A DNA stretch of 32,145 nt from NCBI GenBank assembly GCA_001783565.1, contig MFMT01000042.1:29408-61552 (forward strand), in the 5' to 3' direction. The notes below the pieces were generated by a model. It worked only from the letters and a program-made list of their open reading frames with translations, was not told the DNA's origin and searched no databases. Below are positions 1-32,145 of this stretch, in pieces (the first letter of the stretch is position 1; each line of letters starts with the position of its first letter). The DNA is from Candidatus Kaiserbacteria bacterium RIFOXYD1_FULL_42_15 (GTDB lineage Bacteria > Patescibacteriota > Minisyncoccia > Phycocordibacterales > UBA918). The position numbers and the translations under genes were made by a program.

Positions 1-86
1 CAATAGGAGGACAATGAAATTGACCACGGATTAGAATCTGTAGTCAATCATTTCCATTAGAGTTAAGAACCATAAAGAAAGTAAAT

Positions 87-170
87 GCGTCGGTGGCAGA
101 GTGGTCAATTGCAACAGACTGTAAATCTGTCGGACATCGTCCTACGAAGGTTCAAATCCTTCCCGGCGCA
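87..170 (+). tRNA. tRNA-Tyr(GTA)
   Basis: Cloverleaf: acceptor GCGTCGG/CCGGCGC, anticodon arm ACAGA-CTGTAAA-TCTGT, long variable arm, T arm GAAGG-TTCAAAT-CCTTC, discriminator A; CCA not encoded. Confidence 0.96.
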
Positions 171-828
171 CAGTAACAAAAATCAGCTCAACTTTTTAGT
201 TGGGCGATTTTTTGTCTGTGCGCCGGGAGTGAGTGATTTAATATCACTCACGTAAGGATTTGAAGCCCGATTGAGCTGGATTATGAGTGAAGCGAAATAA
301 TCCAGCCAATTGGGGTACTGAACATGTAATGTTCAAATCCTTCCCGACGCACCAAATACCAAAACTCAAGCGACAGCTTGAGTTTTGTTGTATTTGGTAG
401 CGCCGGGAAGGATTTGAAAGACGAAGCCGGGGCCCCTCTGGGCCGGCGAGTCGGGGTCGAGCGAATGAGATATTTTGTGAATGAAATGAAACAAAATATC
501 CATGAGAGTGACCAAATCCTTCCCGACGCACGCGTATAAAAATCAGCTCAAGCTTTTGCTTGGGCGATTTTTATTGCGTGCGCCGGGAGCAAGCAAATAG
601 TTTTGCTTGCGTAAGGATTTGAAAGCCACAGCGATGTAGCTTTGCTACGAGCGAGGCGGGTGAGAAGTGATTTGACATCACTTCGCAAGACCTTGCCCGC
701 TATCTTTGAAGCGAAGCGAAAAGTAACGACAAGGTGTACAGAATTCGTAGAATTCGCGAACACTTTGTAGAATTGAACGTAGTGAAAATTATACTTAGTG
801 ATTCGTGTTCAAATCCTTCCCGGCGCAC
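171..828 (+). repeat. Array of tRNA-Tyr 3'-end copies (3 inverted, 3 direct) separated by palindromic modules
   Basis: Inverted copies at about 217-264, 400-418 and 578-623; direct copies (GTT)CAAATCCTTCCCG(A/G)CGCA at 331-354, 513-531 and 807-828. Confidence 0.93.
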
Positions 829-830
829 TC

Positions 831-5003: not shown

Positions 5004-5214
5004 AGTCGAATTGTCTTATATTATTTTCACCTCTCTTCACTCAGTAATTATATTTCTTTCAGACACCAAGGGTGACGGTCTGTGACCGATTACTCTATAA
5101 TGCAATATATGGACGTCGCTGTCAAAAAATAGCTGGCCACCGTTGGTAATTAATATTTTATTAACTATAAGGTTCAGATTATTAGTAACTAATAGTGATG
5201 TTTAGAAACGACAT

Positions 5215-5498
5215 GGATTGCCACACTGCGGTTCGCAAAGACGGACGGTGACGTTCATCGTCTTTGCGAGGAGGGAGCCCGCAGGCGAGGGACGTGGCAA
5301 TCCAGGGTGACGGGGCGATGTGGACGGACGATGGCGGGCGTGGATTGCCATGCCTCGCAAAGACGGACGGTGGTGACGGACGTTCTTTGTCTTTGCGAGT
5401 GAGAAAAACATACTATGCTTTTCTCACTCGCAAAGACGCATTGGTGTATATACCAAAAATCAATATAGGTCGTCATTGCGAGCAAAGCGCGGCAATCC
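5215..5498 (+). repeat. Cluster of CGTC-type REP-like palindromic repeats
   Basis: Alternating arms GGATTGCC...TCGCAAAGACG and CGTC(T/A)TTGCGAG...G(T/C)GGCAATCC. Confidence 0.88.
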
Positions 5499-5529
5499 AG
5501 AGTTGGTGTGACGTCACAGATTGCTTCCC

Positions 5530-5612
5530 TACAGATGAACGAATGAGTGTCGTAAAAATAAGACGTAACGTAGTGTAGTTTTATTTTTACGACCGAGTGA
5601 GTGAAATCTGTA
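5530..5612 (+). repeat. Long hairpin with three tandem GA/GA mismatches
   Basis: TACAGAT-GA-AC-GA-AT-GA-G.. 16-bp stem 5549-5564/5578-5593 ..C-GA-GT-GA-GT-GAA-ATCTGTA. Confidence 0.75.
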
Positions 5613-5642
5613 TGTTAATACAGGGACTGTTCAGGTTGTAAG

Positions 5643-6965: not shown

Positions 6966-8465
6966 ATGACAAAAAATACTAAAACCAACACTCCGAATAT
7001 GACCAAGCGACCACCAATTGTGGTGGTTATGGGTCATATTGACCATGGCAAATCAACTCTTTTAGACTTTATTCGAAAAAGCCATGTGGTTGATAGTGAG
7101 ACTGGAGGTATCACTCAACATCTTTCCGCCTATGTGGTACCACACACTACCAAAGATGGCACCAATGAATCAATCACCTTCCTAGACACTCCCGGACACG
7201 CCGCTTTCCAAAAAATGCGTCTTCGTGGTGCTGATGTGGCCGATATCGCCGTCTTAGTAGTGTCTGCCGAAGACGGAGTAAAACCCCAAACCCTTGAAGC
7301 CCTTGAATCTATTAAGCAGGCAGGCATTCCCTTTATTGTTGCCATTAATAAAATTGACAAACCAGGGGCTGACATTTCCAAAACCCAAGCCAGCCTAATT
7401 GAACACGAAATATATATTGAAGGTATGGGGGGAGATATTCCATGGGCCCCCATCTCAGCCAAGGTCGGTACTGGTGTCTCAGAATTGTTGGACTTAATTA
7501 TTCTAGCCGCCGATATGACCGAACTCAAAGGCGATCAGAATGCACCGGCCGAAGGGATTATCATTGAAGGAAAGCTGGACCAAAAAAGAGGCAGTACCGC
7601 CACTCTAATTATCACTAATGGGACCCTCAAGAGTGGTCAGTTCATTGTTTCTGGTACCAGTTTTGCTCCAGTGAGAATTATGGAAGATGCCACTGGCAAA
7701 ACTATAAAAGAAGCTACTCTTTCAACCCCAGTCGGGATTGTTGGTTGGAGTACTATCCCTAAAGCCGGAAGTCAGTTTTATACCGTAGGCAGTAAGAAAG
7801 AAGCCGAGGTGGCCATCTTAGCAACAATCGCTCCGATTGTAACAGACCATAAAAAAAGCGGACTTCCCACTATCCCAGTCCTTATCAAGGCGGACGTCCT
7901 CGGTACCCTAGACGCGATTGAGCATGAACTAAACGCCTTTAAGTCTGAGCGTATCAGTGTGCGCATTATTGATACTGGTGTCGGACCAATTTCCGAGAAT
8001 GACGTTCAGGCCGTCAGTGCCACAAAAGACGCCATCATTGTTGGATTTAATGTAAAAGTGGAAAGAGGAGCAGTTGACATGGCCGAACGTCTTGGGGTTG
8101 AAATAAATACTTTTGATATTATTTATGAACTGTCCGAGTGGCTCAATACCGCTCTTAAAAATCGCACCCCAAAAAAAGAAGAAAGTGTTATTACTGGTCA
8201 TGCTAAAGTATTGAAACATTTTAGCACCCAAAAATACATTCATGTTCTTGGTGGTCGGATTGAAGATGGCGTTCTCAAACTTGGGCAAAGTGTTCGTATT
8301 CTACGTCGCGAGATTGAAGTGGCTAAAGGCATGGTTAAGAATCTTCAACAACAAAAGTCTGATGTTAAGCAAGTGAACGATGGTGAATTTGGTATGCAGA
8401 TTTATTCTAAAAACGAAATCGCTCCCGGAGATATAGTTGAAGGTTTTGAAATTGTGGTTTCATAA
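6966..8465 (+). CDS. infB: Translation initiation factor IF-2 (short form lacking the large N-domain)
   Basis: [39 protein letters not shown] motifs; start moved to ATG 6966 because a TGnTATACT promoter lies at 6903-6911. Confidence 0.95.
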
Positions 8466-8466
8466 T

Positions 8467-8847
8467 ATGGAAATAAAACCCATTACTTTTGATAGACATG
8501 ACCGAGCGGCTTCTTTAATTAAAGAAATAGTAGCCACCTTCATTCAACAAGAGGCAAATCCCAATCCTCTTATTACCGTAACTCACGTTACTGTTTCTCC
8601 AGATTATCGAAAAGTGACAGTGTTTTTTACCACCATCCCTGACGGTCGCGAAGAAGATGCTTTAATTTTCCTCAAGCGCAGTGCTAATGAGATGCGCGGA
8701 TTTGTGAAGAAAAAAAGTAGTTTAAGAATTATTCCCCACTTGGAATTCTCAATAGACTACGGCGAACGACATCGCCAACACATCGATGAGATTGCCCACG
8801 AGATTGAGCACAGTGATGCCGACACCCCTACAGAACCAACCACCTAG
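8467..8847 (+). CDS. rbfA: Ribosome-binding factor A
   Basis: 'ITVTHVTVSPDYRKVTVFFT' and 'LRIIPHLEFSID'; directly after infB. Confidence 0.92.
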   Translation: MEIKPITFDRHDRAASLIKEIVATFIQQEANPNPLITVTHVTVSPDYRKVTVFFTTIPDGREEDALIFLKRSANEMRGFVKKKSSLRIIPHLEFSIDYGERHRQHIDEIAHEIEHSDADTPTEPTT

Positions 8848-8874
8848 GACATCCGATGTCCTAGGTGGTTGGTT
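8834..8874. repeat. Palindrome with 20-bp perfect arms overlapping the rbfA stop
   Basis: AACCAACCACCTAGGACATC-C-GATGTCCTAGGTGGTTGGTT. Confidence 0.9.
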
Positions 8875-8932
8875 GTACAGCTTGATATCTTTTGTCTATA
8901 GCGACCAAAAATGCTAAAGTAATACGCGACCA

Positions 8933-9005
8933 GTCCTGGTGGCGAAGTGGTTAACGCTACGGTTTGCAAAACCGTCATTCGTGGGTTCGACTCCCACCCA
9001 GGACT
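8933..9005 (+). tRNA. tRNA-Cys(GCA)
   Basis: Acceptor GTCCTGG/CCAGGAC, anticodon arm ACGGT-TTGCAAA-ACCGT, T arm GTGGG-TTCGACT-CCCAC, U discriminator. Confidence 0.96.
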
Positions 9006-9199
9006 CATTTATATAAAAACGTACATTCGTACGTTTTTATATAAATGAGTCCTGGGAGTTGTGTGCCTGCGCACACAACGTTGGGAATCGAACAGCGGAG
9101 TTATGTTTTCTCCTCTTCCCTAGAGGAGAAAACAGACGAGCTGCGTCCAGCGTTCTTATGAGCGTCAGCAAATTAGAAAAAGAGGGACGATTTCCACCA
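8997..9199 (+). repeat. tRNA-Cys 3'-end inverted copy, module and degenerate direct copy
   Basis: Perfect 28-bp inverted repeat 8997-9024/9029-9056; inverted T arm TGGGAATCGAA 9082-9092; degenerate direct copy CGATTTCCACCA 9188-9199. Confidence 0.85.
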
Positions 9200-9245
9200 T
9201 AAAACAGAATCAAATTTGAAGTAAATCTAGAAAGGAGTTCCCCTT

Positions 9246-9329
9246 GCCGGGATGGTGTAATCGGTAGCCACGCAAGACTTAAAATTTTGTGGGCGCAAGC
9301 CCGTGCGGGTTCAAGTCCCGCTCCCGGCA
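9246..9329 (+). tRNA. tRNA-Leu(TAA)
   Basis: Acceptor GCCGGGA/TCCCGGC, anticodon loop CTTAAAA, long variable arm, T arm GCGGG-TTCAAGT-CCCGC. Confidence 0.95.
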
Positions 9330-9675
9330 CAATGTAATAGTACGTCAGATTTTTATCTGGCGTACTATTACATTTGCCCCAGGGACTTGAAGAGGTTGCC
9401 TGCTAGATTATGAGCTAGCGAAATAATCTAGCGACAACCTGTACTGAACTCGTAGAGTTCAAGTCCCGCTCCCGGCACAAATTAAAAACTATCATTCTTG
9501 AGAGTTTTTAATTTGTGCCGGGAAGAAAGCAAACTGCTTTGCTTTCGGGCGGGACTTGAAAGGCGGAGCGACGTGAGTTTACGAACAAGCGAGCCAGGGT
9601 CGTGAGCGATATATTTTTAAGGAGTTCACGACTATAAAAATAATCGACTCCTGACCAAGTCCCGCTCCCGGCACA
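9330..9675 (+). repeat. Array of tRNA-Leu(TAA) 3'-end copies (2 inverted, 2 direct)
   Basis: Inverted 9376-9391 (degenerate) and 9514-9560; direct 9457-9479 and 9656-9675 (CAAGTCCCGCTCCCGGCACA). Confidence 0.92.
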
Positions 9676-9751
9676 AAGTATTATTAAGAATATATAGATA
9701 GGTTGTCTAATTTAAATTTATCTTGTACACTTTGCTCTACCAAATATATAT

Positions 9752-9824
9752 GCGCCCTTAGCTCAGTTGGTAGAGCAGCTCCCTCTTAAGGAGACGGTCC
9801 AAGGTTCGAATCCTTGAGGGCGCA
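9752..9824 (+). tRNA. tRNA-Lys(CTT)
   Basis: Acceptor GCGCCCT/AGGGCGC, D arm GCTC-AGTTGGTA-GAGC, anticodon loop CTCTTAA, T arm CAAGG-TTCGAAT-CCTTG. Confidence 0.95.
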
Positions 9825-10107
9825 CAAAGGTAAAGCAAAAACACTATCATAATATGATAGTGTTTTTGTTTTAAAAACTGAACTGCTTCAGTTTTGTGCC
9901 TGTGTGCGAGACGGAGCGATGTTTTTCTGCCCCCTTAGGCAGGAAAATAAGTGAGTCGGGGTAGCGAGTGCTTAGTAAAATAAAGACAAAGTATTTATTT
10001 TGGTTAGCAACTCGTGACCACACAGATACATCTATGTGCTATACATGACATGATTTTGTGACTAAATGATAATGTGTTACACTCTGTCCACACGATTTTG
10101 TGTATCC

Positions 10108-10189
10108 GCGCGAGTGGCGTAATTGGTAGCCGCGTTAGTCTTAGGAACTAATGGAGCAATCCGTGGAGGTTCAAGTCCTCTCTCGCGCA
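10108..10189 (+). tRNA. tRNA-Leu(TAG)
   Basis: Acceptor GCGCGAG/CTCGCGC, anticodon arm TTAGT-CTTAGGA-ACTAA, variable arm, T arm GGAGG-TTCAAGT-CCTCT. Confidence 0.95.
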
Positions 10190-10339
10190 CAAAAGAAAAA
10201 CCGTCCCGCAAGGGCGGTTTTTTGACTGCGCGAGAAGTAGTGTGTGGGACACACTACGGGAGGACTTGAAGAGGTTGCCAGCTCTTTTGAAAAAAGAGCG
10301 ACAACCTGTACTGAACTCGTAGAGTTCAAGTCCTCTCTC
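10190..10339 (+). repeat. Terminator-like hairpin, then tRNA-Leu(TAG) 3'-end inverted copy, module and direct copy
   Basis: Hairpin 10196-10223; inverted copy 10227-10270; direct copy GTTCAAGTCCTCTCTC 10324-10339. Confidence 0.9.
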
Positions 10340-10362
10340 CACATTTCCTATATAATAAACAA

Positions 10363-10785
10363 ATGGCTCAACAAAATACCCAATTTGATTTCGGTGATGG
10401 AAAGCAACCAACTTCCTCATTCACCCTCTATGAATACATCATTAGTGACCGCGGTAGCCGGTATTCAGCCAGTATTGGTTTTGTCACCGGGCGAGAAGAT
10501 ATAAAAAATTTTCTATCCAAACTAAAGACACTAAAAAAATACGCTAGAGCAGATCATCACAGCTGGGCAGCTCGTCTTTCACATGAGGGTACCATTTACG
10601 AAACCAAAAGTGACGATGGTGAGACTGGTGCCGGCATGGTCATACTCCGGATTATGCAAAAAAGGAACGTCACCAACTGCATCATCTCTGTCACTCGCTG
10701 GTTCGGTGGCATTAAATTAGAAGGAGACCGTTTCAAGCATATTCAAGACGCCACCATCTACGCCATTGACCACCTTGATCAATAG
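10363..10785 (+). CDS. YigZ/IMPACT (UPF0029) family protein
   Basis: 'DRGSRY', 'ADHHSWAAR', 'SDDGETGAG', 'VTRWFGGIKL..DRFKHI'. Confidence 0.88.
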   Translation: MAQQNTQFDFGDGKQPTSSFTLYEYIISDRGSRYSASIGFVTGREDIKNFLSKLKTLKKYARADHHSWAARLSHEGTIYETKSDDGETGAGMVILRIMQKRNVTNCIISVTRWFGGIKLEGDRFKHIQDATIYAIDHLDQ

Positions 10786-10817
10786 ATTTATATCGCGATT
10801 AATCGCGATATAAATCT
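10784..10817. repeat. Perfect 34-bp palindrome overlapping the YigZ-family stop codon
   Basis: AGATTTATATCGCGATT|AATCGCGATATAAATCT. Confidence 0.9.
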
Positions 10818-10849
10818 TGATTCGTTGTTGTCACTTTTTTACAACACCA

Positions 10850-11004
10850 CGTCTTTGCGAGTGAGAAAGTCCAGTGGACTTTCGCAAGACCTTGCCAGCT
10901 CTTTTGTAAAAAGAGCGACAAGGTGTACAGTCCCTGTTAAGGGAAAGCGCGGCAATCCACGTCCATCATCGTGTTCGTCTTCGCGAGTCGCAACGTGGCG
11001 ATCC
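10850..11004 (+). repeat. Two CGTC-type arms, the first carrying an inserted three-hairpin module
   Basis: CGTCTTTGCGAG-[10862-10942]-GAAAGCGCGGCAATCC, then CGTCTTCGCGAGTCGCAACGTGGCGATCC. Confidence 0.85.
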
Positions 11005-11088
11005 ACTTCTTCACCTAAACCACAGCCGAGCGAAATCATAAATTGCTAAAATACCCTACAAAATAAGCCCAGAATACCGTCCTAAAAC

Positions 11089-14257: not shown

Positions 14258-14383
14258 AAAATTAAATTGTTAATACTATTAATGAGTATTAATGGTAATT
14301 ATACATGATAATTTGGGGATTGTATGCTTTCTGGGGTGGGGTGTGTATAAAAAAGCTGGTTACAGAAATGAGTCCTGTGAAGA

Positions 14384-14638
14384 CGTGGATTGCTTCGCGC
14401 GACTCGCAAAGACGTTTCACTTTGTGTTCGTCTTCGCGAGGAGTGGAGTGGCAACGTGAAAAAGTGATTCAATATCACTTTGCAAGACTAGTTGAGCAGG
14501 TTTGTGAGTGAAACGAAACAAACTGGCCAACTAGTGGACAGTCCCTGTAAGGGAATGACGTGGCGATCCAGGGTGGCATGACGAACGATGTGGATTGCCA
14601 CGTTGCGACTCGCCTGTCTGCGCAGGCAGACAAAGACG
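14384..14638 (+). repeat. Composite CGTC-type element with a 96-bp inserted module
   Basis: Colinear and near-identical to 17268-17427 except for extra 14457-14552. Confidence 0.9.
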
Positions 14639-14657
14639 GAGGGGTTGAGACGGTGGG

Positions 14658-17171: not shown

Positions 17172-17267
17172 TATCAATAGTATACCGCAAGGAAGTTAAA
17201 AAAAGTGTCGGTGGGGTGTAGAGAACCTGTTTATCCTTAAGACAAACGGTTACGTAACGGACGCAAA

Positions 17268-17427
17268 CGTGGATTGCTTCGTTGCGACTCGCAAAGACGT
17301 TTCACTTTGTGTTCGTCTTCGCGAGGAGCGGAGTGGCAACGGAGTGACGTGGCGATCCAGGGTGGCATGACGAACGATTTGGATTGCCACGTTGCGACTC
17401 GCCTGTCTGCGCAGGCAGGCAAAGACG
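17268..17427 (+). repeat. Composite CGTC-type element (empty form)
   Basis: Three arms; near-identical to 14384-14638 without the insert. Confidence 0.9.
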
Positions 17428-17468
17428 AAACTTTTCCATCTTCAATCTTCTCTATTTTTGTTTTCTCT

Positions 17469-21448: not shown

Positions 21449-21561
21449 AATGACAGTAGTATACAAGAAGAGAGCGGAAATAGAAAATAGAATATGGAAA
21501 ATAGTTGAATAGTTTAATAGTTACAGTTGCATGGTTGTATGGTTGCAATTAATGCAACGTT

Positions 21562-21710
21562 GTCTTCGCGAGGAGCGAGCGCACGAGTGACGTGGCGATC
21601 CAGGGTGGCGACGATGACGAACGGTGTGGATTGCCGCGCTGTGGCTCGCCTGTCTGCCATGCCTGCCCTGCATACGCAGGCATGGCATGCAGGGCAGGCA
21701 GGCAAAGACG
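21562..21710 (+). repeat. CGTC-type element with expanded internal palindrome
   Basis: GTCTTCGCGAG...GACGTGGCGATCC and GGATTGCC...CTCG-[54 nt]-CAAAGACG. Confidence 0.85.
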
Positions 21711-21742
21711 TGACTTTCCCATATTCAATATTCTATTTTCCC

Positions 21743-25823: not shown

Positions 25824-26602
25824 GGATTGCCTGCCTGCACATGTATAACACCTAACGAGCCAGCAGGTGGGCTTCATGACGACTTGCAAAAACGGTAGTC
25901 TTCGTCATTGCGAGAAGGGTGACCGCAGTCTAATGACGTGGCAAATCCATGACCGTACAGAAACGTGGATTGCTTCGTTGTGACTCGCAAAGACGGGTAC
26001 GAAGAACGACACCCCACCATCGTCTTTGCGAGGAATGAGCTGGCAAGCAAATGACGTGGCAATCCACACCATCACCGTCTTTGAGGAGGGAGCTGGCAAG
26101 CGTGAAAAAGTGACTCAATGTTGTGTAAAATAATAAGCGTAGCGACTATATTTTTCATACATAGAATTTTTTATCCTTAATAAAAATTCTTGCACTTTGC
26201 AGCCAACTTGAGCTGGTTTGTACCCACCTTTAGCTGCGAGCAAAGCGTGGCAGGAAATAAAATAGCCAATGAGTGGACAGTCCCTGTTAAGGTGAGAAAT
26301 GTCTGGGTGAGAAAGTCCAGTGGACTTTCTCAAGAGGTTGCCTACTATTTTGCAAAAATAGCGTCAACCTGAACAGCTTCTGTATAGAAGACATTTCGCA
26401 GCCACATTGAGCTAGTTTTACCCACCTTTAGCTGCGAGCGAAGCGTGGCAGGAAATAAAGTAGCCAATGAGTGGACAGTCCCTGTTAAGGTGAGAAAAGC
26501 ATGGGATGCTTTTCGCAAGACTCATTGAGGGATTTTGTGAGTGCAACTAAACAAAATACCCAATGAGTGGACAGTCCCTGTAAGGGAGCAACGTGGTGAT
26601 CC
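25824..26602 (+). repeat. Large composite CGTC-type repeat cluster with tandem and nested modules
   Basis: Multiple CGTC arms; about 100-bp direct repeat 26195-26299/26395-26498; CAATGAGTGGACAGTCCCTGT three times. Confidence 0.92.
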
Positions 26603-26780
26603 AGGATAATTACTGAGTGTATTGTTTCTTGAAACCTTTAGCTACCTCTTAAACGAAAGGTGGTTTTTGGGGTGGGGTACTAGGAAGTTTCTTTGGCCCA
26701 GAAATAGTCAAGAATTAATTAGTATGGGTAATTTGTTACCTTGCACTTTTTCTTCAGGAATGCTATGCTCTTGCCCACAT

Positions 26781-30293: not shown

Positions 30294-30453
30294 GTGCAGC
30301 GGGGCGTAGCGGAATGACACAGCAATCTAGAGTGGCGATGTGGATTACCGCATTGTGACTCGCCTGTCTGCGCAGGCAGGCAAAGACGCGGGGGGTGTAA
30401 TCCACCATCGTCTTCGCGAGGAATGAGCTGGCAAGCGAATGACGTGGCGATCC
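30294..30453 (+). repeat. CGTC-type repeat cluster
   Basis: GGATTACC...GACTCGCCTGTCTGCGCAGGCAGGCAAAGACG and CGTCTTCGCGAGGAATGAGCTGGCAAGCGAATGACGTGGCGATCC. Confidence 0.85.
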
Positions 30454-30580
30454 AGGACGACTACGTGACAATCTATATTGACTACCGGTAGCATTAAAAG
30501 TGGCAAGGTCATACACCACCATTGTTTTTTATGTTATGCTGTTCCTTGTTAAATAAAAATAAGCAACCTTTTGAAATTTT

Positions 30581-31507
30581 ATGTACGACTTGATTATTAT
30601 TGGTGGTGGCCCAGCTGGTATTGCGGCTGGTGTCTATGCTGCCAGAAAGCGATTACGGACTCTTTTTGTTACTAAGGAATGGGGTGGACAAAGTATCGTC
30701 TCGCCCGATATTCAAAACTGGATTGGTACCCCATCAATTTCTGGAGACAAACTAGCCAAAGACCTTGAAAGTCACCTTGAGGCCTACGCCAAAGATATTG
30801 TTACTATCATGGCTGGAAGAACAGCAACCTCTCTAACTAAAGCAGACGATGGAACAAGTTTAGTAACGCTTGACGATGGTACTCAACACTCAGGCAAAGC
30901 TACACTGATTGCTAGTGGTTCAGGACGCAGGCAACTTAACGTACTGGGGGCAGATATTTTTGAACATAAAGGTCTCACCTATTGTGCCAGCTGTGACGGC
31001 CCGATGTTTTCTGGACAAGATGTCGTAGTGATTGGCGGAGGTAATGCTGGCTTTGAATCAGCCGCCCAACTTCTCGCCTATGCAAAAAGTGTTACACTCC
31101 TACACCGAAGCGCTTCATTCAAAGCAGACCCTATTACGGTAGAGAAGGTTTTGGCACATCCAAATATGACCGCTATCACAAACGCCACCCCGACCGAAGT
31201 TGTAGGAGACAAGTTTGTCAGTGGTATCAAGTACACTGATGCTGATGGTGTATCACACGACATGGCAGTGACTGGTATCTTTGTTGAGATTGGTATGATT
31301 CCAAATACAGAATATGTAAAAGATGTCGTAAAGCTGGACGAATACAATCGTATAGAAATAGACCCTTGGACCCAAAAGACAAGTGCCTCGGGTATCTGGG
31401 CGGCCGGTGATTGCACGAATGTGCGCTACCATCAAAACAACATTTCTGCTGGTGACGGGGTCAAAGCCCTTGAGGATATTTATGTCACCCTCAAGACCAA
31501 ATCCTAA
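30581..31507 (+). CDS. trxB: Thioredoxin reductase (TrxB/AhpF C-terminal type)
   Basis: GGGPAG, redox 'YCASCDG', 'IGGGNAG', 'WAAGD'. Confidence 0.9.
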   Translation: MYDLIIIGGGPAGIAAGVYAARKRLRTLFVTKEWGGQSIVSPDIQNWIGTPSISGDKLAKDLESHLEAYAKDIVTIMAGRTATSLTKADDGTSLVTLDDGTQHSGKATLIASGSGRRQLNVLGADIFEHKGLTYCASCDGPMFSGQDVVVIGGGNAGFESAAQLLAYAKSVTLLHRSASFKADPITVEKVLAHPNMTAITNATPTEVVGDKFVSGIKYTDADGVSHDMAVTGIFVEIGMIPNTEYVKDVVKLDEYNRIEIDPWTQKTSASGIWAAGDCTNVRYHQNNISAGDGVKALEDIYVTLKTKS

Positions 31508-31864: not shown

Positions 31865-31951
31865 GGAAGAGTCGCATAGTGGTCTAGTGCACCGGTTTCG
31901 AAAACCGGCATCGGGGAAACTCGATCGAGGGTTCAAATCCCTCCTCTTCCG
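31865..31951 (+). tRNA. tRNA-Ser(CGA)
   Basis: Acceptor GGAAGAG/CTCTTCC, anticodon arm CCGGT-TTCGAAA-ACCGG, long variable arm, T arm GAGGG-TTCAAAT-CCCTC, G discriminator. Confidence 0.96.
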
Positions 31952-32107
31952 CAGTGAATGAAATGAACGAAGGAAGAGGAGGTTGCAGCATTTTGAAAAA
32001 ATGCGTAGCAAGATTTGAAGCCCGATTGAGCTAGATTATGAGCTTGCGAAATAATCTAGCCAATTGGGGTACTGAACATGTAATGTTCAAATCCCTCCTC
32101 TTCCGCA
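31952..32107 (+). repeat. tRNA-Ser 3'-end inverted copy, module and direct copy
   Basis: Interrupted inverted copy 31972-32019; module 32020-32084; direct copy GTTCAAATCCCTCCTCTTCCGCA 32085-32107. Confidence 0.92.
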
Positions 32108-32145
32108 ATGAAAAACTAGCTTTTTTTGACTTTTTTGGTATTATG

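Follow-up and report, generated by a model that had tools for sequence, protein, structure and literature searches.

Echo arrays of tRNA ends around shared hairpin modules downstream of tRNA genes in a Candidatus Kaiserbacteria genome

Several tRNA genes in a 32,145-nt stretch of the genome of Candidatus Kaiserbacteria bacterium RIFOXYD1_FULL_42_15 (the whole of which is referred to here as the window, a part of contig C42) are followed by echo arrays: the 3' end of the tRNA gene reappears downstream, in inverted and in direct orientation, around hairpin modules that are also found at other loci. The echo arrays are real and non-random and belong to a lineage-wide system. The modules form a shared population of structured repeats, whose copy number is variable among genomes, and the segments that flank them are copied from the adjacent tRNA gene. 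We regard the arrays as mosaic hairpin repeats, unusual in that their architecture at tRNA genes is templated locally. As to their origin, we lean towards a DNA-level explanation, in which mobile hairpin modules resembling bacterial interspersed mosaic elements (BIMEs) are combined with local templating by hairpin-arm expansion or snap-back copying.

Genomes of Patescibacteria are among the smallest and most streamlined of bacteria, yet nested hairpin repeats take up about 7% of the DNA in this lineage (repeated sequence makes up 7.4% of the source assembly), with arrays at roughly half of the single-copy essential tRNA genes. The arrays are a natural record of the spread of palindromic repeats and of hairpins copying their surroundings, questions that are still open, decades on, for repetitive extragenic palindromes (REPs) and BIMEs. 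In such a record, the constrained tRNA end is a built-in ruler from which to read in which direction and when copying took place. The units are also found where tRNA clusters are rearranged and contigs break, a matter of some relevance to the assembly and annotation of such genomes.

The source genome (G000) is a bin of 757,479 nt in 43 contigs with N gaps, which is 84% complete, holds 37 tRNA genes, and turns up again in groundwater metagenomes. Its tRNA flanks are probably under-assembled, and the echo counts given below are probably a lower bound. Genes for tRNAs were called by ARAGORN and Rfam, the excess of individual strings was judged against 100 shuffles, and module copies were counted with a covariance model (M1) or nhmmer (M2). 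The echo census covered all 37 tRNA flanks, with direct echoes of at least 15 nt and the 1,500 nt before each tRNA gene as a control. Species representatives used for comparison are distant (68-85% identity in the region of the window); one near-complete relative from the same genus (G007; two contigs, no N, 45 tRNAs) was fetched whole. No description of tRNA-end echoes or of the modules M1 and M2 was found in a literature search whose scope left out most subscription journals and supplements, including the repeat lists of PMC3733652, which could contain kin families.

Architecture of the echo unit

A recurring unit was recognized downstream of the tRNA genes in the following order: X, capT, X', in most cases B, a module, and X again. 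The segment X extends from T54, the start of the T-loop, to C74 of the tRNA. CapT is a long, often perfect hairpin after the gene, with a stem that starts within the acceptor 3' strand (arms of 28 nt at tRNA-Cys and of 25 nt in the second unit of tRNA-Leu-TAA) and a far arm that terminates in X'acc, an inverted copy of the acceptor strand; no tag is common to the capT hairpins. The small hairpin B, which in most units lies at or near the acceptor/T-stem junction, separates X'acc from X'T, the piece that repeats the T-loop and the 3' strand of the T-stem in inverted form. The module, either M1 or M2, comes next and is followed by a direct X, which may open another unit. Units are 130-360 nt long, filled with hairpins and without genes, and one to three of them are present per locus.

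Both an inverted and a direct copy were identified at 17 of the 37 tRNAs of the source genome and an inverted copy only at four, whereas none has a direct copy only; the upstream control gave no direct match and one inverted match. The flanks could in principle have matched some other tRNA better than their neighbor. This was not the case for any of the 21 direct echoes, each of which is matched strictly best by the adjacent tRNA when compared with the other 36. Together with the own-tail echoes found in related genomes (see below), this result supports the view of the earlier note that the flanks are templated locally. The word templated describes the pattern, from which copying as a process is inferred.

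The boundaries of the copies are precise on one side. Among 25 inverted T-arm pieces, 20 end exactly at T54, four extend one base more and one extends three bases; the T-loop sequence TTCGAA reads identically on both strands. The direct echoes start anywhere between positions 52 and 60, with 8 of 21 at G53 (M1 units) and 7 of 21 at C56 (M2 units), and extend to C74 or further. At sites where the 5' strand of the tRNA differs from a perfect complement, namely the T-stem G.U pairs of tRNA-Ala and U4.G69 of tRNA-Tyr, X' is the exact complement of X, and therefore X' is copied from X and not from the 5' half of the tRNA. Directly after the inferred discriminator, C is present in 35 of the 37 genes and is usually followed by A, and a full CCA is encoded in three genes only. 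Six arrays have CCA after the distal echo but not after the gene copy (Ala, Arg-TCT, Arg-GCG, Ser-TGA, Ser-GCT and the first Tyr echo).

In the window, four co-oriented tRNA genes (Cys, Leu-TAA, Lys-CTT and Leu-TAG) come after infB and rbfA (Table 1), and the earlier note had described arrays at three of them, each repeating its own tRNA. At tRNA-Leu-TAA this is exactly what is found: the string CCCGCTCCCGGCACA occurs three times in the window (9317, 9465 and 9661, all on the plus strand), with 0 expected from the shuffles. The tRNA-Leu-TAG echo is present and longer than the 8-mer quoted originally (GTTCAAGTCCTCTCTC at 10169 and 10324, 0 expected), but it is truncated, with the last 7 nt of the acceptor absent. 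For tRNA-Cys, the inverted copy stands (CCCAGGACTC at 8997 on the plus strand and at 9047-9056 on the minus strand, 0.01 expected), but there is no direct echo; this gene carries a half unit, not an array. Two features had been overlooked: the inverted copy of the tRNA end within the units, and the membership of the modules in a genome- and lineage-wide repeat family.

The module proposed to be shared by the two Leu arrays is indeed common to them: 9430-9466 and 10297-10333 are 100% identical over 37 nt, and 9383-9404 and 10262-10283 are 95% identical. Likewise, the inner hairpin at 9402-9432 aligns with the hairpins of the Ser-CGA and Tyr modules, and a counterpart of the hairpin at 10281-10299 (88% over 43 nt) lies within a CGTC-type element, at 10898-10916. 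M1 is a module of about 75 nt. Its outer stem, P1, stacks on the inner hairpin P2, and the conserved linker G(T/G)AC(A/T)G leads from there to hairpin P3, the loop of which usually reads TGTAA. When 25 copies were aligned, double-sided changes were observed in 17 of the 21 predicted pairs; 96.3% of cells are paired, versus 64.0% in column shuffles and 32-47% with slid partners. The unpaired motifs are conserved as well, including an invariant AC-G in the linker before P3, and within the stems there are 44 G.T versus 13 A.C combinations. M2 (about 110 nt) contains a GAG..CGAA-type hairpin as in the inner hairpin of M1, and 14 of its 15 nhmmer matches are located downstream of a co-oriented tRNA gene.

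In total, 83 copies of M1 were identified in the source genome. Nineteen of them lie within 400 nt downstream of a co-oriented tRNA and one lies downstream in the opposite orientation; 64 of the 83 are away from tRNAs, and most of these occupy a fixed site in CGTC-tagged REP-like elements or belong to tandem mosaics. Relative to the nearest upstream protein gene, 34 copies have the same and 39 the opposite orientation (73 of 82 copies with such a neighbor, nine being without one and one partial match being excluded), and this lack of preference argues against a general role in transcripts. In G007, 22 of 41 copies are on the leading strand and 19 on the other, as judged by GC skew, which is no bias. 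The duplex energy of the M1 flanks is -15.5 versus -12.5 kcal/mol for the tRNA-linked copies and -13.8 versus -12.7 kcal/mol for the generic ones (own versus cross-paired controls, 76 of 82 copies), with the reservation that adjacent B hairpins pair mutually.

The suggestion that sub-modules are shuffled combinatorially gained more modest support. The inner hairpin CTCTTTT..AAAAGAG is found with three classes of outer stem, as is the CTAGATT.. variant, and one complete set of four combinations was observed between inner hairpin and P3 variants, so sub-module combinations are reticulate. In support of local templating, a module core that is near-identical in aligned rows is present between Tyr-specific and Leu-CAA-specific flanks.

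Relatives, turnover and integrity of the assembly

M1 is present in all 18 genomes of the genus (5-90 copies each) and in 7 of the 12 other families of the order (3-10 copies). Echoes were detected at none of the 18 tRNAs examined in four M1-free genomes of the order and at 3 of 9 tRNAs in five M1-holding outgroup genomes; thus, echoes go with the modules. Ten other genomes of the genus were examined at one locus each, and 15 of the 40 cluster tRNAs at these loci are followed by a direct echo of their own tail, even as acceptor stems and tails vary by species. In G007, inverted copies were found at 24 of the 45 tRNAs and direct copies at 12, with both at nine and an inverted copy only at 15; the inverted copy ends at T54 there, too. 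The upstream control of this genome gave no direct and five inverted matches.

Turnover of the units is most clearly followed after the orthologous tRNA-Leu-TAG genes of 11 genomes, where M1, M2, something else or nothing is found. One species has a spacer of 41 nt at this place, and a direct copy is missing in some. The echoes are always equal to the local tail, and the modules around them diverge. The tRNA cluster itself has also changed. Compact co-oriented clusters of Cys, Leu-TAA, Lys-CTT and Leu-TAG are found in the M1-free genomes G020, G026 and G028 (L083, L085 and L086), and in the genus (L013-L022) the cluster is expanded, with single tRNAs inverted or reordered.

The arrays could in principle be an artefact produced by mis-joining of repeats in a metagenomic bin. 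The fragmentation of the bin into contigs that often stop within repeats, and its N gaps, would be consistent with such an artefact, as would the breaks of Logan contigs at repeats of at least 31 nt, including the 37-nt repeat common to both Leu modules. However, Logan contigs from four runs and three studies tile 8951-10813 in the same order, which answers the concern of the earlier note about chimeric assembly, and a 650-nt contig of run X7 covers 10164-10813 and thereby bridges the end of tRNA-Leu-TAG, the module, the echo and the next gene. Within each unit the inverted and the direct copy fit one and the same tRNA, and ten other genomes of the genus show this architecture too, among them G007 with its two gapless contigs. 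We therefore regard an artefact as extremely improbable. One further X7 contig joins 9012 to 9652, with a shorter side of 26 nt only. Many contigs and scaffolding gaps of the source bin stop inside the repeats, e.g., after window position 32145, at C8 14975 and at C42 29035-29073.

Origin of the arrays and their kinship with known systems

Two alternatives to the DNA-level explanation were weighed. The units could be RNAs that mimic the top half of a tRNA: the X':X pairing would rebuild the acceptor and T-stem as a 12-bp minihelix that is extended through the T-loop, with B at the place where the D and anticodon arms branch off and the module capping the helix. Such RNAs could attract RNase P, RNase Z or the CCA-adding enzyme, by which module RNAs would be released or marked. 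In a variant of this scheme, X' could pair with the 3' end of the tRNA itself and thereby control its maturation. The exact geometry agrees with mimicry, since B is near the acceptor/T-stem junction and X reaches the discriminator and C74. So do the orientation of the modules at tRNAs (19 of 20 downstream M1 copies co-oriented, 14 of 15 M2 copies after tRNAs), the covariation, conserved loop motifs and excess of G.T on the tRNA-sense strand in M1, folding of the arrays as RNA far better than shuffles (z = -12.5), and the persistence of perfect echoes amid diverging modules. On the other hand, an RNA constraint does not require X' to be an exact complement even where the tRNA tolerates G.U, and the G+C-rich hairpin with a T run between tRNA-Leu-TAG and its X' would have to be read through. 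An X1:X' duplex of more than 20 bp, if transcribed, would compete with tRNA folding. Furthermore, the presence of units and the type of module change among species at the same tRNA, echoes are absent from all 18 tRNAs examined in four genomes of the order, most M1 copies are away from tRNAs and in either orientation to genes, and ARAGORN and Rfam report only true tRNAs, with nothing tRNA-like in the units. We consider mimicry an unlikely explanation of the arrays.

In tRNA genes, the crossover made by tyrosine integrases falls in the T-loop or the anticodon loop and leaves a direct repeat from that loop to the 3' end; a rule for the sub-location used within tRNA genes was reportedly formulated by Williams in 2002. 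The echoes could accordingly be duplicated attachment (att) sites, and the units eroded remnants of integrated elements or miniature elements moved in trans. The direct repeats from the T-loop to the tRNA end or beyond follow the classical att pattern, CCA stands at the distal copy in six arrays as expected of a displaced original end, and the order and orientation of the cluster tRNAs differ among species. The duplications from the anticodon loop without an inverted copy in G007 and the partial 5' copies upstream of some tRNAs would also fit. Against this, the units are short and geneless, and the only tyrosine recombinase of the source genome is a 325-aa frame on another contig (PF00589, C29). 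Integration yields no inverted copy, yet one lies beside every direct copy (17 of 17 tRNAs in the source genome). The same modules between the flanks of many tRNAs would require an attP for each mini-element, and the 64 M1 copies that are not at tRNAs are left aside by this explanation, which we hold to be distinctly unlikely. Partial tRNA copies left by integrated elements are described in the sections of PMC9897764 that were consulted, and after REPs and BIMEs such att duplications are the known system most like the arrays. They too are direct 3' repeats from a cloverleaf loop, leave the tRNA intact and can accumulate; the arrays described here differ from them in the lack of cargo and integrase, the unit length, the extra inverted copy, and an interior common to different tRNAs.

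The DNA-level explanation, which appears somewhat more probable than its negation, would run as follows. Lineage-specific modular hairpin repeats (capT, B, M1, M2 and the CGTC REPs), which resemble the REP/BIME mosaics of enterobacteria, would have settled immediately 3' of tRNA genes, where such DNA is safe since the tRNA stays intact. The arms of the hairpin adjoining the tRNA would then have been lengthened by copying across it, through template switching of the polymerase or snap-back priming, in a relay that leads from X to X' across capT and from X' to the next X across the module. The turn-around point may be the near-palindromic T-loop or a nick at T54, the modules would occupy single-stranded loops of the folded DNA, and repeated homogenization of the arms would keep the copies identical to the selected arm of the tRNA. 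Template switching at imperfect inverted repeats is described as homogenizing and lengthening their arms in the portions consulted of PMC8604942 and PMC13100816.

Several observations are in line with this scheme. The palindromic TTCGAA offers a natural turn-round point, which may explain the T54 boundary; inverted-only units are common (four in the source genome and 15 in G007) and fit intermediates of the relay; and the presence of modules within the D-, T- and anticodon loops of partial tRNA copies suggests entry into single-stranded DNA loops. Turnover of units between species and the indifference of M1 to gene orientation also favor a DNA-level process, as do the number of echoes and their confinement to the downstream side, their occurrence together with the modules, the exact complementarity of X' to X, the fixed site of modules in CGTC REPs, and the strong covariation of the M1 stems. 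Hairpins away from tRNAs point the same way, as they have local inverted extensions of their own. In the hairpin after rbfA, the right arm (8855-8874) repeats the final codons and the stop of that gene in inverted form, which is local inverted templating at a non-tRNA gene. Seven copies of the core of this hairpin, CCTAGGACATCNGATGTCCTAGG, exist in the genome; their palindromic extensions are unique to each site and measure 3, 3, 10, 1, 1, 6 and 9 nt. Similarly, one copy of a second hairpin family has a locally unique 19-nt palindromic extension.

A number of findings weigh against the DNA-level explanation or fit it poorly. No copying event was caught in the act, and the sequencing runs were seen as contigs, which are blind to rare excision, inversion or insertion. 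The Tyr array has an A in both of its middle direct copies at a site where each of its three inverted copies complements a G, and therefore these middle copies were not simply templated from the neighboring X'. Three G007 tRNAs, out of the 12 that have a direct copy, lack an inverted one, and two of these are partial duplicates from the anticodon loop that look more like the action of a recombinase or tandem duplication. The direct 5' echoes before tRNA-Tyr, Ser-GCT, Gln-CTG and Arg-TCT are unexplained by arm expansion, and CCA at the distal echo suggests that the gene originally ended at the distal copy, with new DNA having come in at the T-loop of a gene that once encoded CCA; arm expansion alone would not predict this. 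The near-confinement of M2 to tRNA flanks and the maintenance of the unpaired motifs of M1 would suit a function or a sequence-specific enzyme; the excess of G.T over A.C implies that one strand matters, and an RNA role is possible on that account. Single-strand transposases gain no support, given that M1 shows no GC-skew bias in G007 and that Y1 genes do not track M1. Taken together, the features that misfit point to a recombinase or a nick in the loop, acting in addition to arm expansion or in its place.

A bolder and rather doubtful version is that tRNA genes are the seeds of a self-extending hairpin concertina, with a nick or turn-around at T54 and snap-back copying across modules, or alternatively that X'-module-X is expressed as a new kind of tRNA-top-half mimic. 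The former would mean that a repeat propagates without a target sequence of its own, borrowing one from the host each time, and the latter, if the units are expressed, would add a new family of tRNA mimics, each with the acceptor identity of its neighbor.

Among known repeats, the closest likeness is to REPs and BIMEs. According to the parts consulted of Di Nocera et al. 2013 (PMC3733652), some REP families are always found inside small 'target' palindromes that are never found empty, and REPs include GTAG and CGTC super-families. As with those elements, so far as this source goes, we observe short extragenic multicopy hairpins, arranged in mosaics of alternating orientation with conserved motifs between them, and CGTC units are abundant here; M1 and M2 within the X'/X palindrome resemble REPs in their target palindromes. 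The alternating unit, however, is the local tRNA end and not a family consensus. The hosts of most M1 copies start with CGTC, whereas M1 itself is without GTAG or CGTC. Moreover, no cognate RAYT (REP-associated tyrosine transposase) accompanied by the same repeat was found, the RAYT-like genes being flanked by other hairpins. Across genomes, M1 presence was compared with a single protein family (Y1_Tnp, PF01797): 6 of the 18 M1-bearing genomes of the genus are without a match and three M1-free genomes have one.

Template-switch or quasipalindrome mutagenesis, as presented in the consulted parts of PMC7202029, PMC8604942 and PMC13100816, shares with the arrays the perfect, locally unique extension of an arm and its identity to a constrained arm. 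The published cases range from a few nt to short arms, and a relay of about 21 nt over two kinds of hairpins at half of the tRNAs was not found described in those parts.

Human DUP-TRP/INV-DUP (duplication-inverted triplication-duplication) rearrangements have the direct-inverted-direct order and are attributed to two template switches at inverted repeats, as single events of kb to Mb; the order of copies is the same, but the recurrent 20-nt pattern tied to one gene class is different. Pneumococcal BOX elements (boxA-B-C) and Neisseria Correia elements are non-coding combinations of sub-modules with hairpin folds and, unlike the arrays, have neither locally templated flanks nor a link to tRNAs. 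CRISPR (clustered regularly interspaced short palindromic repeats) arrays are superficially similar in that they alternate a short direct repeat with longer inserts beside a fixed end, whereas here the repeat is the tRNA end and varies per locus, and the 'spacers' are shared structured modules with an inverted copy.

Feature map of the window and neighboring elements

The features of the locus, together with related elements elsewhere in the window and in the source genome, are listed in Table 1. At tRNA-Cys, X'T is followed by a degenerate M2-like stretch at about 9093-9170, and 9063-9141 is repeated elsewhere. The acceptor part of X' is degenerate in the first unit of tRNA-Leu-TAA. The flank of tRNA-Lys-CTT gave a 5-nt inverted match only and no direct echo. 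The third unit of tRNA-Tyr is a composite with an M2-like start, a generic M1 and further sequence.

Table 1. Coordinates of tRNA genes, echo units and related hairpin elements (window positions unless a contig is given)
Feature	Position	Strand	Basis or remark
tRNA-Tyr with three units (M1; M2; composite)	87..830	+	direct echoes end at 352, 531, 828
REP-type hairpin after rbfA	8834..8874	.	20-nt arms, 100%
tRNA-Cys(GCA)	8933..9006	+	ARAGORN, Rfam
Perfect hairpin from within the tRNA-Cys acceptor 3' strand to X'acc (9047-9056)	8997..9056	+	28-nt arms, 100%, 4-nt loop
Hairpin B splitting the inverted copy, Cys unit	9058..9079	+	read from sequence; sits between both inverted pieces
X'T of tRNA-Cys, T-loop and T-stem 3' strand, 1 mismatch	9082..9093	+	inverted-piece search
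tRNA-Leu(TAA), last 22 nt = X1	9246..9330	+	ARAGORN, Rfam
CapT of Leu-TAA unit 1	9331..9374	+	20-nt arms, 95%
X'T of Leu-TAA unit 1, GGGACTTGAA, inverse of T54 to C63	9382..9391	+	inverted-piece search
M1 of Leu-TAA unit 1: P1, P2, linker GTACTG, P3	9387..9461	+	85.0 bits
X2, first direct tRNA-Leu-TAA echo, G53 to C74, 22/22	9457..9478	+	repeat search
Hairpin of Leu-TAA unit 2, begins within X2, closes with X'acc (9515-9523)	9470..9523	+	25-nt arms, 96%
Hairpin B of Leu-TAA unit 2	9524..9546	+	read from sequence; paired in fold
X'T of Leu-TAA unit 2, GCGGGACTTGAA	9549..9560	+	inverted-repeat search
M2 of Leu-TAA unit 2	9556..9662	+	nhmmer, C42 38963-39069, E 8e-24
X3, second direct tRNA-Leu-TAA echo, C56 to C74, 19/19	9656..9674	+	repeat search
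tRNA-Lys(CTT)	9752..9825	+	ARAGORN
Composite hairpin after tRNA-Lys(CTT)	9831-9873 and 9879-9896	+	inverted-repeat search
M2 copy after tRNA-Lys(CTT)	9905-10023	+	nhmmer, C42 39312-39430
tRNA-Leu(TAG)	10108..10190	+	ARAGORN, Rfam
G+C-rich hairpin, then T run, terminator-like by eye	10197..10224	+	read from sequence, fold
X'acc of Leu-TAG unit, TGCGCGAGA	10227..10235	+	inverted-piece search
Hairpin B of Leu-TAG unit	10237..10259	+	read from sequence, fold
X'T of Leu-TAG unit, GAGGACTTGAA	10260..10270	+	inverted-piece search
M1 of Leu-TAG unit, short inner hairpin	10266..10328	+	69.7 bits
Truncated direct tRNA-Leu-TAG echo, G53 to C68, 16 nt	10324..10339	+	repeat search
M1 nested in CGTC-type REP, inner hairpin common to Leu-TAG module	10883..10945	+	64.1 bits
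tRNA-Ser(CGA) with one M1 unit and 22-nt echo	31865..32105	+	M1 model, echo search
CGTC mosaics	5193-5640, 10842-11015, 14376-14647, 17252-17458, 21550-21739, 25871-26705, 30332-30480
RAYT-like frames	C7 5957-6628; C11 ~7804-8151; C23 ~31192-31425; C41 ~39741-39962
Further 5' echo sites	C26 3398-3535; C42 8417-8436; C5 10359-10404

At the gathering score, Rfam gave six tRNA matches in the window and nothing else; in a permissive scan of 8850-11050 the non-tRNA matches were far below gathering and mostly to microRNA precursor models on long hairpins. A simple terminator scan made no plus-strand calls among the hairpins after the four tRNAs, and the label 'terminator-like' for capT reflects a by-eye reading of the Leu-TAG hairpin only. 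A by-eye resemblance of the inner-hairpin motif TGAG..CGAAA to a hammerhead core was dropped, as the positions equivalent to C3 and G5 misfit.

No enzyme tied to the arrays was identified among the families searched in the source genome. One canonical IS200/IS605 transposase (Y1, 143 aa) is located at the end of contig C21, and neither a TnpB-type nor a reverse transcriptase match was found in this 84%-complete bin. Two PF01548 frames (C4 and C12) were considered as IS110-type, bridge-RNA candidates and rejected, their flanks being without M1, M2 or a tRNA copy.

Echoes of tRNA 5' ends were also observed. Three direct copies of the leader and nt 1-18 are located upstream of tRNA-Tyr (C42 28949-29325 and window 1-86), and each contains an inserted D-loop hairpin, another small hairpin and a shared module, the end of which is window 1-40. 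The layout at tRNA-Ser-GCT is the same, and at tRNA-Gln-CTG the 5' copy measures 20 nt; none of the 5' echoes was seen to have an inverted counterpart. At tRNA-Arg-TCT, a 46-nt exact 5' copy is followed by a B hairpin, M1 and a decayed segment from the T-loop to the 3' end (C5 10359-10548, L050), and this copy, about 45 nt upstream of the intact gene, looks as if M1 had broken it in the T-loop. The module before tRNA-Tyr (window 1-40) and tRNA-Ser-GCT (C26 3485-3520) contains AGGAGG followed by ATG and a frame of 6-8 codons, which may be a chance feature or a miniature open reading frame.

In G007, partial tRNA copies are located after tRNA-Ile-GAT and tRNA-Thr-TGT (C1 21700-21875 and 95597-95830). 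The former contains a reversed M1 within the anticodon loop; the latter are tandem copies that start in the anticodon loop, with a 67-nt spacer and no inverted copy. In the M1-free genomes G028 (L082 1292-1364) and G020 (L084 1201-1273), ARAGORN called a tRNA with a TTA anticodon ('Stop') at the position of tRNA-Lys-TTT in relatives; the call may reflect a misplaced anticodon loop or a tRNA of suppressor type.

The CGTC-tagged REP-like mosaics (CGTC.TTGCGAG ... GACGTGGCAATCCAC) are intergenic, contain nested M1 and other hairpin modules, and have up to 41 partner matches each in the genome. Each of the four RAYT-like Y1 transposase frames (211-234 aa) lies between hairpins of a family of its own, in the classical REPtron layout, and the hairpin that brackets the RAYT-like gene of contig C7 is the one found after rbfA in the window.

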